DNA of 64,000 nt from Escherichia coli (GTDB taxonomy: Bacteria; Pseudomonadota; Gammaproteobacteria; Enterobacterales; Enterobacteriaceae): NCBI RefSeq assembly GCF_016026235.1, contig NZ_CP065613.1; one strand, written 5' to 3'. The position numbers and the translations under genes are program-made. Positions 6,631-61,935 of this stretch are shown piece after piece. The number at the start of each line of letters is the position of its first letter. Positions within the stretch are counted from its first letter, which is position 1. Below the pieces are notes generated by a model that ran no database searches, was not told the DNA's origin, and saw only the letters and a list, made by a program, of their open reading frames with translations.

Positions 6631-9600
6631 TTGAGCCAGGAATACACTGAAGACAAAGAAGTCACATTGACAAAGTTAAGTAGCGGCCGTCGCCTTCTGG
6701 AAGCGTTGCTGATCCTTATTGTCCTGTTTGCCGTCTGGTTGATGGCTGCCTTACTAAGCTTTAACCCTTCGGACCCCAGCTGGTCGCAAACGGCCTGGCA
6801 TGAACCTATCCATAATTTAGGTGGGATGCCCGGTGCGTGGCTGGCAGATACGCTGTTCTTTATTTTTGGCGTGATGGCTTACACCATTCCCGTCATTATT
6901 GTCGGCGGTTGTTGGTTTGCCTGGCGTCATCAGTCCAGTGACGAATACATTGATTATTTTGCCGTTTCGCTACGCATCATTGGCGTTTTGGCGCTCATCC
7001 TTACCTCCTGTGGTCTGGCGGCAATCAACGCTGACGATATCTGGTATTTTGCCTCCGGTGGCGTCATTGGCAGCTTACTAAGCACTACGCTACAACCACT
7101 GCTACACAGTAGCGGGGGAACTATTGCGCTGCTCTGCGTTTGGGCTGCGGGCCTGACGCTGTTCACCGGTTGGTCATGGGTGACCATTGCTGAAAAACTC
7201 GGCGGCTGGATTTTAAACATTCTCACCTTCGCTAGTAATCGTACCCGTCGCGATGATACCTGGGTCGATGAAGATGAATATGAAGATGACGAAGAGTATG
7301 AAGATGAAAACCACGGCAAACAGCATGAATCACGCCGTGCCCGTATTCTTCGCGGCGCGCTAGCGCGTCGTAAACGGTTGGCGGAAAAATTCATTAATCC
7401 GATGGGGCGGCAAACAGACGCTGCGTTGTTCTCCGGTAAGCGGATGGATGATGACGAAGAGATTACCTACACTGCACGCGGTGTGGCTGCCGACCCGGAC
7501 GACGTCCTATTTTCGGGCAATCGTGCAACGCAGCCAGAATATGACGAATACGATCCATTATTAAACGGTGCGCCAATTACCGAACCTGTCGCTGTGGCAG
7601 CTGCTGCTACCACGGCGACACAAAGCTGGGCTGCGCCGGTTGAACCTGTGACTCAGACGCCGCCTGTTGCCTCTGTTGATGTTCCACCTTCGCAACCTAC
7701 AGTAGCCTGGCAGCCTGTACCGGGTCCACAAACGGGAGAGCCGGTTATTGCTCCTGCACCGGAAGGTTACCCACAGCAGTCACAATATGTGCAGCCTGCA
7801 GTGCAATATAATGAGCCGCTGCAACAACCAGTACAGCCGCAGCAGCCGTATTATGCACCTGCAGCTGAACAACCTGCGCAACAACCTTACTACGCTCCTG
7901 CGGCGGAACAACCTGTTCAGCAACCGTATTACGCCCCTGCGCCAGAACAACCGGTGGCAGGTAACGCCTGGCAAGCCGAAGAGCAGCAATCCACTTTTGC
8001 TCCACAGTCTACATACCAGACTGAGCAAACTTATCAGCAACCAGCCGCTCAGGAGCCGTTGTACCAACAGCCGCAATCCGTTGAACAGCAGCCTGTTGTG
8101 GAGCCTGAACCCGTTGTAGAAGAGACAAAACCCGCGCGTCCGCCGCTTTACTATTTTGAAGAAGTGGAAGAGAAGCGAGCCCGTGAACGTGAACAACTTG
8201 CGGCCTGGTATCAACCGATTCCAGAACCGGTTAAAGAACCAGAACCGATCAAATCTTCGTTGAAAGCGCCTTCTGTTGCAGCAGTACCTCCAGTAGAAGC
8301 CGCTGCCGCTGTTTCTCCGCTGGCATCTGGCGTGAAAAAAGCGACACTGGCGACGGGGGCTGCCGCAACCGTTGCCGCGCCAGTCTTCAGTCTGGCAAAT
8401 AGCGGTGGACCGCGTCCGCAAGTCAAAGAGGGGATTGGCCCGCAGTTGCCACGACCGAAACGTATCCGCGTGCCAACTCGTCGTGAACTGGCGTCTTACG
8501 GTATTAAGCTGCCCTCACAGCGTGCGGCGGAAGAGAAAGCCCGTGAAGCCCAGCGCAATCAGTATGATTCTGGCGATCAGTATAACGATGATGAAATCGA
8601 TGCGATGCAGCAGGATGAACTGGCACGTCAGTTCGCCCAGACACAGCAGCAACGCTATGGCGAACAGTATCAACATGATGTGCCCGTAAACGCAGAAGAT
8701 GCAGATGCTGCGGCAGAGGCTGAACTGGCTCGTCAGTTTGCGCAAACTCAACAACAACGTTATTCCGGCGAACAACCGGCTGGGGCGAATCCGTTCTCGC
8801 TGGATGATTTTGAATTTTCGCCAATGAAAGCGTTGCTGGATGATGGTCCACACGAACCGTTGTTTACGCCAATTGTTGAACCTGTACAGCAGCCGCAACA
8901 ACCGGTTGCACCGCAGCAGCAGTATCAGCAGCCACAACAGCCGGTTGCGCCACAGCAGCAATATCAGCAGCCGCAACAGCCGGTTGCGCCGCAGCCGCAG
9001 TATCAGCAGCCACAACAGCAGGTTGCGCCGCAGCCACAATATCAGCAGCCGCAACAACCGGTTGCGCCACAGCAGCAATATCAGCAGCCGCAACAACCGA
9101 TTGCGCCACAGCAGCAATATCAGCAGCCGCAACAACCAGTTGCGCCGCAGCCGCAGTATCAACAGCCGCAACAACCGGTTGCACCGCAGCAGCAGGATAC
9201 CCTGCTTCATCCGCTGTTGATGCGTAATGGCGACAGCCGTCCGTTGCATAAACCGACGACGCCGCTGCCTTCTCTGGATTTGCTGACACCGCCGCCGAGC
9301 GAAGTGGAGCCGGTAGATACCTTTGCGCTTGAACAAATGGCTCGCCTGGTGGAAGCGCGTCTGGCTGATTTCCGTATTAAAGCCGATGTCGTCAATTACT
9401 CTCCGGGGCCGGTTATCACTCGCTTTGAACTTAACCTGGCTCCTGGCGTAAAAGCGGCGCGCATTTCTAACTTGTCACGGGACCTTGCCCGTTCACTTTC
9501 GACGGTGGCGGTGCGTGTCGTTGAAGTTATTCCTGGCAAACCCTATGTAGGTCTGGAGTTACCAAATAAAAAACGACAAACCGTTTATCTGCGCGAAGTT

Positions 9601-10737
9601 TTGGATAACGCCAAATTCCGCGATAATCCGTCGCCATTAACCGTGGTGCTGGGTAAAGATATCGCCGGTGAGCCGGTGGTTGCCGATCTGGCGAAAATGC
9701 CGCACTTGTTGGTTGCGGGGACTACCGGTTCCGGTAAATCTGTCGGTGTGAACGCGATGATCCTGAGCATGCTTTATAAAGCACAGCCAGAAGATGTGCG
9801 TTTCATCATGATCGACCCGAAAATGCTGGAGCTTTCGGTTTATGAAGGCATTCCGCATCTGTTAACGGAAGTCGTTACTGATATGAAAGATGCCGCCAAC
9901 GCGCTGCGCTGGTGTGTTAACGAGATGGAGCGTCGTTATAAACTGATGTCTGCGCTGGGTGTGCGTAATCTGGCGGGTTATAACGAAAAAATTGCTGAAG
10001 CCGATCGCATGATGCGTCCGATTCCAGACCCGTACTGGAAGCCGGGTGACAGTATGGATGCCCAGCATCCGGTGCTGAAAAAAGAACCATACATTGTGGT
10101 GTTGGTTGACGAATTTGCCGACCTGATGATGACGGTAGGTAAAAAAGTGGAAGAGCTGATAGCACGTCTGGCGCAAAAAGCCCGTGCCGCGGGTATCCAC
10201 CTCGTACTGGCAACTCAGCGTCCATCGGTTGATGTTATTACTGGTCTGATTAAAGCGAATATTCCGACCCGTATCGCCTTTACCGTATCCAGCAAGATTG
10301 ACTCACGTACCATTCTTGATCAGGCTGGCGCGGAATCACTGCTGGGGATGGGGGATATGCTCTACTCTGGGCCGAACTCCACGTTGCCGGTACGTGTCCA
10401 TGGTGCTTTTGTTCGCGATCAGGAAGTTCATGCCGTGGTGCAGGACTGGAAAGCGCGTGGTCGCCCACAGTATGTTGATGGCATCACTTCCGACAGTGAA
10501 AGCGAAGGTGGCGCGGGCGGTTTCGATGGCGCTGAAGAACTGGATCCGTTGTTCGATCAGGCGGTGCAGTTTGTCACTGAAAAACGCAAAGCGTCAATTT
10601 CTGGCGTACAGCGTCAGTTCCGCATTGGTTATAACCGTGCAGCGCGTATTATCGAACAGATGGAAGCGCAGGGGATTGTCAGCGAACAGGGGCACAACGG
10701 TAATCGTGAAGTGCTGGCCCCACCGCCGTTTGACTAA
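6631..10737 (+). CDS. ftsK: DNA translocase FtsK (TTG start), long-linker variant
   Basis: 1368-aa ORF: N-terminal membrane domain, Pro/Gln-rich linker, C-terminal motor domain (Walker A GTTGSGKS) and gamma domain. Confidence 0.93.
8887..9195 (+). repeat. In-frame tandem array of about 8 copies of a 39-bp unit encoding [13 protein letters not shown] variants in the FtsK linker
   Basis: Directly visible periodic repeat in the DNA and translation; a second 3-copy array ([13 protein letters not shown]) lies near 7840-7960. Confidence 0.85.
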
Positions 10738-10744
10738 TTAATGC

Positions 10745-10785
10745 ATTGCCGGATAAGGCGCGGTAGCGTCGCATCCGGCACTCTA
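10745..10785. repeat. REP-like palindromic element downstream of ftsK
   Basis: tgccggataaggcgcggtagcgtcgcatccggca resembles the GCCGGATAAGGCG / CGCATCCGGCA REP arms. Confidence 0.5.
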
Positions 10786-10891
10786 TCAACTGAAAATTCA
10801 GTATTTTCTTCTTTCCTCAAGCTGATTATTAGCCTGGAATAGAGAGTAGAGGGAACTCCCGATCGGGAGTGACGTAATTTGAGGAATAATG

Positions 10892-11503
10892 ATGAAAAAA
10901 ATTGCCATCACCTGTGCATTACTCTCAAGCTTAGTAGCAAGCAGCGTTTGGGCTGATGCCGCAAGCGATCTGAAAAGCCGCCTGGATAAAGTCAGCAGCT
11001 TCCACGCCAGCTTCACACAAAAAGTGACTGACGGTAGCGGCGCGGCGGTGCAGGAAGGTCAGGGCGATCTGTGGGTGAAACGTCCAAACTTATTCAACTG
11101 GCATATGACACAGCCTGATGAAAGCATTCTGGTTTCTGACGGTAAAACACTGTGGTTCTATAACCCGTTCGTTGAGCAAGCTACGGCAACTTGGCTGAAA
11201 GATGCCACCGGTAATACGCCGTTTATGCTGATTGCCCGCAACCAGTCCAGCGACTGGCAGCAGTACAATATCAAACAGAATGGCGATGACTTTGTCCTGA
11301 CGCCGAAAGCCAGCAATGGCAATCTGAAGCAGTTCACCATTAACGTGGGACGTGATGGCACAATCCATCAGTTTAGCGCGGTGGAGCAGGACGATCAGCG
11401 CAGCAGTTATCAACTGAAATCCCAGCAAAATGGGGCTGTGGATGCAGCGAAATTTACCTTCACCCCGCCGCAAGGCGTCACGGTAGATGATCAACGTAAG
11501 TAG
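10892..11503 (+). CDS. lolA: Outer-membrane lipoprotein carrier protein LolA
   Basis: ORF with signal peptide [21 protein letters not shown]; 203 aa from the second Met. Confidence 0.92.
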
Positions 11504-14240: not shown

Positions 14241-14258
14241 TACCCAATTTTTCTGAAT

Positions 14259-14288
14259 CTAAAAAGCGCCTGCGGGCGCTTTTTTTGT
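14259..14288 (+). terminator. Rho-independent terminator of serS
   Basis: aaaaaGCGCCtgcgGGCGCttttttt hairpin plus T-run. Confidence 0.8.
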
Positions 14289-14478
14289 CTCCCTTTGATA
14301 CCGAACAATAATTACTCCTCACTTACACGTAATACTACTTTCGAGTGAAAATCTACCTATCTCTTTGATTTTCAAATTATTCGATGTATACAAGCCTATA
14401 TAGCGAGCTGCTATAGAAATAATTACACAATACGGTTTGTTACTGGAATCAATCGTGAGCAAGCTTGAGTGAGCCATT

Positions 14479-33661: not shown

Positions 33662-33674
33662 CGGCACATTGTCG
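33662..33674. repeat. 13-bp target-site duplication, left copy, of IS4 copy 1 (cggcacattgtcg)
   Basis: Identical 13-mer directly abuts both ends of the element (second copy at 35101..35113). Confidence 0.85.
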
Positions 33675-35100
33675 TAATGCCAGTCAGTTAAGCAACTGAC
33701 TGGCTCTTTTTCGGGGCTGTGGGGTATTTCCAGGGCCTCTCCTTTACCACTCTCGGGAAGGCCCTTCCCCTTCTCGTCGGTAATTTCACAAGTTGTCCCA
33801 TACTTGCAAGATCGCGCATCAGCTCCGGTATACGTCCCGGTGAAGCGCCCTGCAATGTCATCAGCATTCTCATCACCATTCCGCATGATTCTGAGAAACT
33901 CAGTTGATTCGGCCAGTAACCTTTCAGATGTTCCGCCATTTTAATCATCTGATATCTCACCAGATTATAAGCCAGTAAGACACCCCACAGCTCTTGCTCC
34001 ACAAGCTCCGGCTTTTTACTTCTCAGCGTCAGCCTGCTCAGTTGCATCGTCTGTTTTATCTCCCTGTATCCCAGTTCGATTTCCCAGCGATGACTGTACA
34101 GATCCGCCATTTCTCCTCCGGGGAAGCGCATGGCGTCCGTCATCGACGTCAGCAGATGGCAGACTTTTCCTTTGCGCGTCACGGTCAGCAGGCGGGCTGT
34201 CACTTCATTTCCCAGTCCCGGCCACTTTTTTCGTGCCTGCGGGCTGGTTTTCAGCTTCACCAGATGATCGCCTTTACCCAGTTTTCTGAGCTCTTCATAT
34301 TGCGCTCCCTTTCTGAGAGGTATCATCCAGTGGCGGTGTTCTCCCGCCAGGCTCCAGGCATTTAACAGTCCCAGTGAGTAATAACCTTTATCCATTAACG
34401 TCAGAGTGTTATCGCCGGTTTGTTCTATAAGTTGCTCAGCAAGCTCATTTTCGCTGTTCTTCATCGTGCCGAAGGCTGCAGCCGTCAGCAGATGGCTGGT
34501 CAGTTCCATCTGGCAGACCATTTTGACCTGCGGGTAGAGCGCCGGGTTCCCGGCATGTGTCTGGCGGGGGAAGGCTGCATCGTTCTCTGGTGTATCCGGT
34601 GTGCGCCAGAACACACCATCGATGGCCAGCAGGGTCAGGCCGCACCAGTGCGGATGCGGCGTGGCGTTATGCCAGAGCTGCGCTGTTTTCGTGAACACGC
34701 GGCGGACAGCCTCACTTCCCAGGCGCTGGCGGGCCTGAATAACGGCACTGGGGGCAACGAAGGGGCGATTGCCCGGCAGCATGATGTCCAGGCGATTCAC
34801 AATCTGGTGAAGAGGTTCTTTACGCTCAAGCGCCATGCCAACAATACACCAGACCATCATTTCGAGGGGAAGACGGCGCTTGCGTAGCGTTACAGTACCT
34901 GATTCGGCAAGGCAACGAGAGATGAGTTCGGGGTCGAGGTAATCCCCCAGAGAAGTCAGTGGGTTACGCAGAGAATCGTAACGGGATACCAGATCAAGAG
35001 CCTGTCCAATGTGCATAAAAAAATCCGGAAACAAGTGAGCGTTTCCGGATTCTTACACAGCCACTGGATCGGTCAACTGATCCTTAACTGATCGGCATTA
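33675..35100 (-). mobile_element. Insertion sequence IS4, copy 1 (1426 bp)
   Basis: Imperfect 18-bp terminal inverted repeats (TAATGCCAGTCAGTTAAG / TAATGCCGATCAGTTAAG), single DDE transposase ORF, flanking 13-bp direct repeats; interrupts the aroA-loiP intergenic region. Confidence 0.93.
33688..35016 (-). CDS. insG: IS4 transposase
   Basis: 448-aa ORF (to 35034); 442 aa from the Met at [10 protein letters not shown]; recognised as IS4 family transposase. Confidence 0.9.
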
Positions 35101-55809: not shown

Positions 55810-55822
55810 GCACATTACGGCG
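55810..55822. repeat. 13-bp target-site duplication, left copy, of IS4 copy 2 (gcacattacggcg)
   Basis: Identical 13-mer at 57249..57261 directly after the right IR. Confidence 0.85.
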
Positions 55823-57248
55823 TAATGCCAGTCAGTTAAGCAACTGACTGGCTCTTTTTCGGGGCTGTGGGGTATTTCCAGGGCCTCTCCTTTACCACTC
55901 TCGGGAAGGCCCTTCCCCTTCTCGTCGGTAATTTCACAAGTTGTCCCATACTTGCAAGATCGCGCATCAGCTCCGGTATACGTCCCGGTGAAGCGCCCTG
56001 CAATGTCATCAGCATTCTCATCACCATTCCGCATGATTCTGAGAAACTCAGTTGATTCGGCCAGTAACCTTTCAGATGTTCCGCCATTTTAATCATCTGA
56101 TATCTCACCAGATTATAAGCCAGTAAGACACCCCACAGCTCTTGCTCCACAAGCTCCGGCTTTTTACTTCTCAGCGTCAGCCTGCTCAGTTGCATCGTCT
56201 GTTTTATCTCCCTGTATCCCAGTTCGATTTCCCAGCGATGACTGTACAGATCCGCCATTTCTCCTCCGGGGAAGCGCATGGCGTCCGTCATCGACGTCAG
56301 CAGATGGCAGACTTTTCCTTTGCGCGTCACGGTCAGCAGGCGGGCTGTCACTTCATTTCCCAGTCCCGGCCACTTTTTTCGTGCCTGCGGGCTGGTTTTC
56401 AGCTTCACCAGATGATCGCCTTTACCCAGTTTTCTGAGCTCTTCATATTGCGCTCCCTTTCTGAGAGGTATCATCCAGTGGCGGTGTTCTCCCGCCAGGC
56501 TCCAGGCATTTAACAGTCCCAGTGAGTAATAACCTTTATCCATTAACGTCAGAGTGTTATCGCCGGTTTGTTCTATAAGTTGCTCAGCAAGCTCATTTTC
56601 GCTGTTCTTCATCGTGCCGAAGGCTGCAGCCGTCAGCAGATGGCTGGTCAGTTCCATCTGGCAGACCATTTTGACCTGCGGGTAGAGCGCCGGGTTCCCG
56701 GCATGTGTCTGGCGGGGGAAGGCTGCATCGTTCTCTGGTGTATCCGGTGTGCGCCAGAACACACCATCGATGGCCAGCAGGGTCAGGCCGCACCAGTGCG
56801 GATGCGGCGTGGCGTTATGCCAGAGCTGCGCTGTTTTCGTGAACACGCGGCGGACAGCCTCACTTCCCAGGCGCTGGCGGGCCTGAATAACGGCACTGGG
56901 GGCAACGAAGGGGCGATTGCCCGGCAGCATGATGTCCAGGCGATTCACAATCTGGTGAAGAGGTTCTTTACGCTCAAGCGCCATGCCAACAATACACCAG
57001 ACCATCATTTCGAGGGGAAGACGGCGCTTGCGTAGCGTTACAGTACCTGATTCGGCAAGGCAACGAGAGATGAGTTCGGGGTCGAGGTAATCCCCCAGAG
57101 AAGTCAGTGGGTTACGCAGAGAATCGTAACGGGATACCAGATCAAGAGCCTGTCCAATGTGCATAAAAAAATCCGGAAACAAGTGAGCGTTTCCGGATTC
57201 TTACACAGCCACTGGATCGGTCAACTGATCCTTAACTGATCGGCATTA
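55823..57248 (-). mobile_element. Insertion sequence IS4, copy 2 (1426 bp), identical to copy 1 and in the same orientation
   Basis: Same terminal IRs and identical 448-aa ORF translation as copy 1; own 13-bp direct repeats; interrupts the mukB-ldtD intergenic region. Confidence 0.93.
55836..57164 (-). CDS. insG: IS4 transposase
   Basis: Translation identical to the copy-1 transposase ORF. Confidence 0.9.
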
Positions 57249-60046: not shown

Positions 60047-60694
60047 ATGAACTATCGTATTATTCCGGTCACCGCATTCTCCCAGAACTGTTCATTGATC
60101 TGGTGTGAACAAACCCGCCTGGCCGCACTGGTCGATCCTGGCGGCGATGCGGAAAAAATCAAACAGGAAGTTGATGCCAGCGGCCTGACACTGATGCAGA
60201 TCCTGCTGACGCATGGTCATCTGGACCACGTTGGCGCAGCAGCGGAACTGGCGCAACATTACGGCGTGCCGGTTTTTGGTCCGGAAAAAGAAGATGAGTT
60301 CTGGCTGCAAGGCTTGCCTGCGCAAAGTCGTATGTTTGGTCTGGAAGAGTGCCAGCCGCTGACGCCAGATCGTTGGCTGAACGAAGGCGATACCATCAGC
60401 ATAGGGAATGTGACTTTACAGGTGTTACATTGCCCTGGGCATACGCCGGGTCATGTCGTGTTTTTTGATGATCGGGCAAAGCTGCTGATTTCTGGCGATG
60501 TTATTTTCAAAGGCGGAGTAGGGCGCAGTGACTTCCCGCGTGGCGATCATAATCAACTGATTTCTTCAATCAAAGATAAATTGCTGCCACTGGGGGATGA
60601 CGTGACATTTATTCCGGGTCACGGACCATTATCCACACTTGGTTATGAACGCCTGCATAATCCCTTCCTGCAAGACGAAATGCCCGTCTGGTAA
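60047..60694 (+). CDS. gloC: Hydroxyacylglutathione hydrolase GloC (YcbL), metallo-beta-lactamase fold
   Basis: 215-aa ORF with THGHLDH motif. Confidence 0.9.
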
Positions 60695-60700
60695 GGCACA

Positions 60701-60740
60701 CATAAAAAAGCCCGCTTTTCAGCGGGCTTCATTGTTTTTA
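60701..60740 (-). terminator. Hairpin terminator between convergent gloC and aspC
   Basis: aaaaaAGCCCGCttttcaGCGGGCTtcattgttttt; T-runs on both strands. Confidence 0.75.
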
Positions 60741-60744
60741 ACGC

Positions 60745-61935
60745 TTACAGCACTGCCACAATCGCTTCGCACAGCGGAGCCATGTTATCTGGTGTCATCC
60801 CGGCCACGTTTACGCGACCAGAAGCAACAGCATACACGCCAAACTCTTCGCGCAGACGCAGCACTTGTTCTTTTGTCAGGCCACTGAAGGAGAACATGCC
60901 GTTCTGTTTGATGATAAAGCTGAAGTCGCGGTTTGCCCCTTTTTCCTGCAGCGTATTGACGAACAACTGACGCATACGCTGAATACGCTGGCGCATATCA
61001 GTCAGCTCTTGTTCCCAAATCGCACGTAACGCATCGTTGCTCAGGATGGTGGCAACAACAGAAGCGCCGTGTGCTGGTGGGTTAGAGTAGTTAGCGCGAA
61101 TCGCCGCTTTCATTTGGCTGAATGCGCGATCAACGGTTTCACTGTCGGCAGCAACCAGAGTACAAGCGCCAACACGCTCGTTGTACAGGCCAAAGTTTTT
61201 AGAGTAGGAACTGGCAACAATCAGCTCTTTATGCATAGCCGCGAAAGCGCGCAGTCCTTCAGCATCTTCTTCCAGACCACGGGCAAAACCCTGGTAAGCG
61301 AAGTCAAACAGCGGTAACCAGCCTTTCTCAACGGAGAGTTGTGCCAGTGTCTGCCATTGTTCCAGCGTAGGGTCGATACCGGTTGGGTTGTGGCAGCAGC
61401 CATGGAACAGCACTACGTCGCCAGCCTGAGCTTCGTTCAGGCTGTTAATCAGTGCATCGAAGTCAAGGGTGTGGTTTTCCGCATCATAATAAGCGTATTC
61501 ACGAACTTCCAGACCTGCAGAGTTAAAGACGCTCTTATGGTTCGGCCAGCTTGGGTTGCTCACCCACACACGCTTAACGCTGGTATTTTTTGCCAGGAAA
61601 TCGGCAGCCACGCGTAGTGCGCCAGTGCCACCCGGAGTCTGTGCCGTGCGAGCACGTTTGTCATTGATCAGGGCGCTACCTTTACCAAACAGCAGTTCCT
61701 GAGTGCAGCGACCAAATTCAGGGATGCCGTCAATGCCGAGGTAATTTTTGGTGGTTTCATTTTCGAGCAGATACTGTTCAGCCTTTTTCACGCTGGTCAG
61801 TACCGGGGTTTTGCCCGTCTCATCTTTATAGACACCAATCCCGAGGTTAATTTTGCCGGGACGTTCATCGGCACGAAACAGATCGGCCAGGCCCAGAATC
61901 GGGTCGGCAGGAGCGGCGGTAATGTTCTCAAACAT
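60745..61935 (-). CDS. aspC: Aspartate aminotransferase
   Basis: 396-aa [26 protein letters not shown]. Confidence 0.96.

Follow-up and report, generated by a model that had tools for sequence, protein, structure and literature searches.

The 64,000-nucleotide stretch of Escherichia coli DNA analysed here (hereafter, the window) carries an ORF corresponding to ftsK (6631–10737) and an ORF corresponding to lolA (10889–11503), and a palindrome lies in the spacer between the ftsK stop codon and lolA, about 108 nt before the latter. In annotated E. coli genomes the identical DNA is labelled ftsK and lolA, and K-12 MG1655 presents the same layout. The 401 nt around the palindrome were 100% identical to many E. 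coli genomes and found matches in 5,425 of 5,426 complete genomes. A check of the sequence placed the 34-mer tgccggataaggcgcggtagcgtcgcatccggca inside the interval (10745–10785) in which a previous sequence-only reading had seen an imperfect REP-like dyad. The two arms of the dyad surround a 4-nt centre, and the predicted RNA fold, ((((((((..(((((....)))))..)))))))), has an energy of −23.7 kcal/mol with 12 pairs (a 7-bp lower and a 5-bp upper stem) plus a closing T-A pair. Dinucleotide shuffles of the palindrome gave a mean of −13.3 kcal/mol (z = −3.7), only 1 out of 200 folding as well, and the pattern GCCGGAT-N12-24-ATCCGGC was matched once in the 64-kb window for 0.01 matches expected. The dyad was thus confirmed by its fold, by the shuffles and by the pattern expectation. 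The coordinates of its parts are collected in Table 1.

Table 1. Parts of the REP downstream of ftsK (positions in the window)
Feature	Position	Strand	Basis or remark
ftsK stop codon TAA	10735..10737	+	REP stem 9 nt downstream here; 13 nt in K-12 and most alleles
Junction of the 4-nt deletion, 5' GTAG box lost	10746..10747	+	Alignments, allele frequency
Whole REP (palindromic unit)	10747..10780	+	y-type lower stem, slightly longer upper stem
Lower stem, 5' arm GCCGGAT	10748..10754	+	Pairs with 10773–10779
AA side of the AA-GC mismatch bulge	10755..10756	+	Sequence; PMC8266576, PMC3333891
Upper stem, 5' arm GGCGC	10757..10761	+	Pairs with 10766–10770; one G-T/G-U pair
Loop GGTA	10762..10765	+	IS1397 insertion point and target duplication
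Upper stem, 3' arm GCGTC	10766..10770	+	Fold
GC side of the AA-GC bulge	10771..10772	+	Sequence; PMC8266576
Lower stem, 3' arm ATCCGGC	10773..10779	+	Fold

An AA-GC bulge and a 5' GTAG are the hallmarks of E. coli REPs, the bulge being present in all three types (PMC8266576, PMC3333891). The sequence-only reading had proposed a search with a REP consensus and a comparison with the K-12 ftsK-lolA spacer. The y consensus, with GTAG at its 5' end, is GTAGGCCGGATAAGGCGTTCACGCCGCATCCGGCA, and both of its arms were matched exactly by the window element (13 nt and 11 nt). The long z consensus aligned with 86% identity over 29 nt, because the upper stem of the window element is one base pair longer than that of the y type. 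As for K-12, the REP body is identical. Following the convention that places GTAG at the 5' end, the element is oriented on the + strand, i.e., on the ftsK sense strand. The 40-nt REP core was found in at least 216,431 places in 5,425 of the 5,426 complete E. coli genomes, with a median of at least 40 places per genome and at least 40 in 5,248 records. Since it recurs 40 times or more per E. coli genome, this core is a dispersed high-copy repeat. Rfam holds no REP family as such. Its naRNA4 model, which derives from REP325, was matched over half of its length on the minus strand (positions 41–76) with 26.8 bits for a gathering score of 59.5, and with an E-value of 0.014 on 801 nt or 1.1 on 64 kb. 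Such a score below the gathering value is expected, because one REP was scored against a multi-REP RNA, and the match does not amount to a formal family assignment.

The window was also searched with a two-arm REP regular expression, for which the recovery of both REPs of the K-12 yaaX-yaaA spacer served as positive control. This search returned the ftsK-lolA site and one chance match inside the ycaO coding sequence. One extragenic site by regular expression and one naRNA4/REP325-type hit by Rfam scan confirm, for this strain, the earlier statement that no other REP-like element is visible in the window. RefSeq NC_000913.3 (K-12) carries no REP feature wherever checked, even in yaaX-yaaA where two REPs were found here; hence, the missing annotation of the ftsK-lolA copy, at about 937,224–937,260 in K-12, is uninformative. 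No REP coordinates usable for ftsK or lolA were found in the supplementary data of Ton-Hoang 2012 or of the RepRanger paper.

Just 5' of the palindrome, K-12 MG1655 differs from the window by a 4-nt CGTA insertion and one SNP, so that this flank reads CATCGTATGCCGG in K-12, CATTGCCGG in the window and CATCGTAGGCCGG in other E. coli. In an alignment of seven E. coli lineages, the majority form was CGTAGGCCGGATAAGG..., in which a GTAG box abuts the stem. The canonical GTAG was present in UM146, ST131, RM14516, GPEC464 and the representatives of two other Escherichia species, as well as in E. whittamii as far as its contig extends. The box reads GTAT in K-12 and TTAG in IAI39, and it is gone from the window, where GCATT is directly followed by GCCGG. 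A 91-nt probe across this junction, matched without a gap, detected the deleted allele in about 2,560 of 5,426 genomes, i.e., roughly half, including O157:H7, O111:H8 and a B-strain derivative. From these alignments, the GTAG-bearing allele is likely the ancestral form of the locus, and the box appears to have decayed twice independently, once in K-12 and once in the lineage of the window.

This loss bears on the mobility of the element. At the DNA level, the element would owe its spread to TnpA(REP), the REP-associated tyrosine transposase (RAYT), acting on a folded single strand. Both GTAG and the bulge are required for TnpA(REP) binding and cleavage (PMC3333891, PMC8266576). Of these two substrate features, the window allele has kept the unpaired AA-GC bulge and lacks the 5' GTAG. 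The window copy is therefore predicted to escape recognition by TnpA(REP), and we infer that the GTAG-less allele, having lost a box that the enzyme requires, would now be a fixed and immobile relic.

Another mobile element has left a trace at this locus. The match between the IAI39 genome and the window began midway through the palindrome, and the IAI39 spacer holds an insertion sequence annotated as IS1397. At one junction, GGCGC and GGTA are followed by TGAACTGCACCCC, and at the other GGGGTTCAGTTCA is followed by GGTA and GCGTC. Hence, the loop of the REP is the exact insertion point of IS1397, and GGTA was duplicated. In GF43, IS1397 occupies this site too and is likewise bordered by GGTA on either side, and the two insertions may go back to one shared ancestral event. 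IS1397 was experimentally shown to be specific for REPs/palindromic units (PMC1525189). Given this specificity, its insertion exactly in the loop means that a REP-seeking transposase treats the palindrome as a REP, and the loop of the ftsK-lolA REP is a natural IS1397 target. The general suggestion that REPs can act as IS insertion sites was therefore verified directly, in an orthologous copy of the very same element. Altogether, the arms, the AA-GC bulge, the extragenic site, the copy number and the IS1397 in the loop bear out the REP/PU interpretation, with the sub-threshold naRNA4 match as partial support, and we consider it virtually certain that the palindrome after ftsK is an E. coli REP.

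The conservation of the element was then considered. Over 10 Escherichia copies, 99.2% of the pair cells were standard and 2 pairs had changed on both sides in a compensatory manner; 27 of 500 shuffles matched the observed pairing, which gives modest support for a maintained hairpin. The 5' arm of the lower stem, GCCGGAT, was invariant and paired in all 10 copies, save for its variable outermost pair. In the seven E. coli lineages, spacer polymorphism was found mostly in or beside the REP and the lolA-proximal 100 nt were almost invariant, which suggests that the REP is under weak constraint, less than the region upstream of lolA. The REP was retained in 5,422 of the 5,426 genomes.

Orthologous spacers were collected with an FtsK C-terminal peptide pattern, using one genome per species, and this yielded at least 120 Enterobacteriaceae loci. 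Among the matches listed, the E. coli-type REP was limited to Escherichia. The spacer measures 151–158 nt in Escherichia (151 in the window), 108 nt in Citrobacter and about 117–125 nt in Klebsiella/Enterobacter. The spacers of these last three genera, about 35–45 nt shorter, contain neither a REP nor any hairpin at this place. In a four-way alignment, the approximately 45 extra nt of E. coli lie directly after the stop codon, and the sequence from AATTCAGTATTTTC to lolA is conserved. Since Citrobacter, Klebsiella and Enterobacter do without a hairpin there, the REP is no general requirement for the expression of ftsK or lolA. In Salmonella arizonae (S. enterica subsp. arizonae), the first 35 nt after the ftsK stop contain ACCAGATAGCGACGTTGGCTGCCATCCGGCA, in which the 3' arm CCATCCGGCA is kept. 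Judging from this one sequence, it may be a decayed REP, so that the insertion might be older than the divergence of Escherichia and Salmonella. In Buttiauxella, Shimwellia, Cedecea and Mangrovibacter, a canonical intrinsic terminator (e.g., AGAGCCGCCGTTGCGGCTTTTAT) stands right after ftsK in the place of the REP. Different hairpins thus occupy the post-ftsK position in different genera.

The remainder of the spacer has features of its own. The segment 10790–10850, AATTCAGTATTTTCTTCTTTCCTCA...GCCTGGAAT, is nearly invariant in Escherichia, Salmonella and Citrobacter, and a TAnAGT-like hexamer within it aligns across many genera; this segment could be the lolA promoter. A simple sigma-70 scan of 10500–11000 returned no promoter sites. 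A perfect 16-nt palindrome, ACTCCCGATCGGGAGT, is located at 10855–10870, some 18 nt before the Shine-Dalgarno sequence of lolA. A CTCCC...GGGAG hairpin was found at the same place in 54 of 114 Enterobacteriaceae loci among the matches listed, and further genera have other GC hairpins there. Across genera, no RNAalifold consensus structure was obtained for the hairpin upstream of lolA and its pair counts were no better than those of slid controls. On the other side, ftsK contains an internal array in which a 39-nt unit is repeated in tandem about eight times (8848–9268), and on which Rfam gave a spurious sub-threshold isrG hit. The length of ftsK among strains ranges from 3,990 nt (K-12) to 4,107 nt, and the difference from K-12 is a multiple of 39 nt in some cases but not in all. 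The array may therefore account for part of this length variation.

When compared with known systems, the element resembles most features of the y-type REP of K-12 yaaX-yaaA (GTAGGCAGGATAAGGCGTTCACGCCGCATCCGGCA). Both have the GCCGGAT/ATCCGGC lower stem, the AA-GC bulge and the 3' A, both are extragenic and present in high copy number, and the 5' GTAG is shared with the orthologous alleles of the ftsK-lolA REP. The differences are an upper stem of 5 bp (GGCGC/GCGTC, with one G-T pair) instead of 4 bp, a GTAG-bearing unit of 37 nt instead of 35 nt, a length that resembles the long z type, and the lack of GTAG in the window allele. BIMEs, such as that of K-12 gloC-aspC, are built from the same palindromic units, whereas the ftsK-lolA spacer holds one unit; no inverted second REP or linker motif was found in its 151 nt, so that it does not qualify as a BIME. 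Singletons make up 84 of the 584 REPs of K-12 (PMC3333891). REP325/naRNA4 (Rfam RF02564) is the transcript of a multi-REP cluster, unlike the single unit described here, which is not a naRNA4 gene. The post-ftsK terminators of Buttiauxella, Shimwellia, Cedecea and Mangrovibacter are also GC-rich hairpins located a few nt after the stop, but they consist of a perfect stem with a T-run and are unrepeated, whereas in Escherichia the hairpin contains the REP bulge, lacks a T-run and is related to hundreds of other copies in the genome. REPINs are made of two REPs, and this doublet is regarded as the mobile unit. The REPIN/RAYT systems (e.g., in Pseudomonas fluorescens) share with E. coli REPs the concept of short palindromic non-autonomous elements combined with a domesticated HUH tyrosine transposase (PMC3333891). 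In contrast to a REPIN, the ftsK-lolA REP stands alone; it is of the E. coli group-2 type, and its window allele lacks the GTAG recognition box. A single REP copy with a y-type stem, located in the ftsK 3' untranslated region, is the best explanation of the palindrome (probability of about 0.9). As such, it is an ordinary, slightly decayed copy of a well-known repeat and adds nothing new to this family.

The location of this REP raises the question of its effect on RNA. Every ftsK transcript passing the stop codon would carry the −23.7 kcal/mol hairpin, whose most likely activity would be that of a barrier to 3'-to-5' exonucleases, shaping the 3' end of the ftsK mRNA. Newbury et al. reportedly identified REP hairpins as 3' exonuclease barriers in 1987. 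The same description is found in PMC12306157. We infer from this that the REP would stabilise the ftsK mRNA. Besides, according to Liang et al. 2015, as relayed by PMC12306157, a REP less than 16 nt after a stop codon is reported to stall the terminating ribosome and lower upstream translation. With its stem 9 nt after the stop (13 nt in K-12), the hairpin is inside this reported stalling range. In the Term-seq data of Adams et al. 2021, the tabulated RNA 3' ends include none from K-12 positions 934931 to 938065; hence, no prominent REP-protected ftsK 3' end was detected, for a gene that is weakly expressed. Our literature search found no experiment on the ftsK-lolA REP copy. That the RNA hairpin measurably affects the ftsK mRNA or protein has, in our view, an even chance of being true, and a physiologically important role of the REP is improbable.

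Several other explanations of the palindrome were weighed. A chance palindrome merely resembling a REP would be compatible with the shortness of the sequence and with an Rfam score under the gathering threshold. Yet 0.01 matches are expected per window, the bulge is canonical, and the high copy number (at least 216,431 places with a similar sequence across E. coli), the GTAG of the orthologous alleles and the IS1397 insertion in the loop together refute this explanation, whose probability is close to nil. If the palindrome were the Rho-independent terminator of ftsK and shielded lolA from read-through, it would also appear as a GC-rich hairpin directly after the stop codon, as do the canonical GC stems with a T-run that occupy the equivalent place in Buttiauxella, Shimwellia, Cedecea and Mangrovibacter. 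However, the stem in the window is followed by CACTCTATCAAC, which has no T-run, the promoter/terminator scan of 10500–11000 returned 0 sites, the Term-seq tables give no 3' end for the spacer, and the sequence belongs to a dispersed repeat instead of being specific to the locus. A function as terminator is thus very unlikely. Activities linked to gyrase, IHF and Pol I are attributed mainly to BIMEs, i.e., paired inverted REPs with specific linkers. At ftsK-lolA there is one REP, with no partner in the spacer and no IHF-type linker. A BIME-type architectural site for DNA gyrase, IHF or Pol I that would organise local supercoiling is therefore highly improbable, even though REPs were reported to bind the three proteins (PMC1525189). 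The same holds for the role as gyrase site that the sequence-only reading had evoked, since gyrase and IHF roles belong mainly to BIMEs and not to single REPs.

If the palindrome is a REP copy, it may be neutral or it may act on translation. A neutral relic would be a selfish or junk REP that was fixed by drift, has no needed effect and serves only as an IS landing pad; we give this explanation slightly less than an even chance. It is in line with the clustering of polymorphism in the REP and its flanks in an otherwise nearly invariant spacer, with the independent decay of the GTAG box in K-12 and in the window lineage, with the lack of a hairpin here in related genera, with the lack of a listed Term-seq 3' end and with the disruption by IS1397 in the natural isolates IAI39 and GF43 without apparent harm. 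By contrast, the stem is paired in 10 of 10 Escherichia copies with two compensatory changes, the REP was kept in 5,422 of 5,426 genomes, and its distance to the stop codon is within the reported effective range. Neutrality accommodates these counterpoints, since the pairing could also be kept up by gene conversion between copies of the REP. Alternatively, the hairpin might act as a brake on translation, stalling the terminating ribosome and leading to mRNA cleavage, tmRNA rescue and less FtsK (Liang, Rudd and Deutscher 2015). The hairpin is stable, and whichever allele is considered, it starts closer to the stop than the 16 nt given in PMC12306157, at 9 nt in the window and at 13 nt in K-12 and the majority of alleles. 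But the argument is one of position, and about half of all REPs have such a position, so that it is not distinguishing; this role is possible and rather doubtful. In a further scenario, the hairpin would stall ribosomes and tune FtsK, and the 4-nt deletion would both have immobilised the REP and tightened the stop-hairpin spacing from 13 to 9 nt. This scenario is a long shot. If it were true, E. coli lineages would differ heritably in their level of FtsK, an essential cell-division DNA translocase.

Considered as a REP copy, the element has little significance beyond correct annotation, the repeat family having been described about 40 years ago. Nevertheless, this single locus displays the life cycle of a REP, with a GTAG allele, two GTAG decays, an IS1397-interrupted allele and absence in sister genera. 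Besides, an essential gene with a REP 9–13 nt beyond its stop codon is a convenient natural test case for the proposed ribosome-stalling mechanism.

Elsewhere in the window, 13-nt BLAST matches to the REP consensus were obtained at 34651, 56799, 54732 and 24501. None of them had a REP-type palindrome, and they were rejected as REPs. The matches at 34651 and 56799 fall in the duplicated copies of IS4. These two identical copies of 1,428 bp (33673–35100 and 55821–57248) encode a transposase with the Pfam domains Nterm_IS4 and DDE_Tnp_1, and each is flanked by a 13-bp direct duplication, CGGCACATTGTCG and GCACATTACGGCG, the two sequences being similar. When mapped to K-12, one insertion site is just 3' of aroA and the other is between mukB and ldtD. 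The aroA-IS4 junction is common to 39 complete E. coli genomes.

The gloC-aspC spacer (60705–60720 in the window) was also compared with K-12, in which it contains 171 extra nt with a BIME (an inverted y REP and a z REP). In K-12, this BIME is flanked by the 11-nt direct repeat AGCCCGCTTTT, which is half of a terminator hairpin, and the window presents a clean "empty" site devoid of the BIME. Both alleles are common, the empty one being found in O157:H7 and UTI89 and the filled one in K-12-like strains. The bidirectional terminator hairpin of gloC-aspC, AAAAAGCCCGCTTTTCAGCGGGCTT, gave weak sub-threshold Rfam hits to Trp_leader, Thr_leader, STnc50 and BSnc120 (60657–60788), which are probably generic terminator-like matches. 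Finally, the minus strand of the serS-dmsA spacer (14254–14388) gave a full-length match to the sRNA STnc130 with 140 bits, well over the gathering score.
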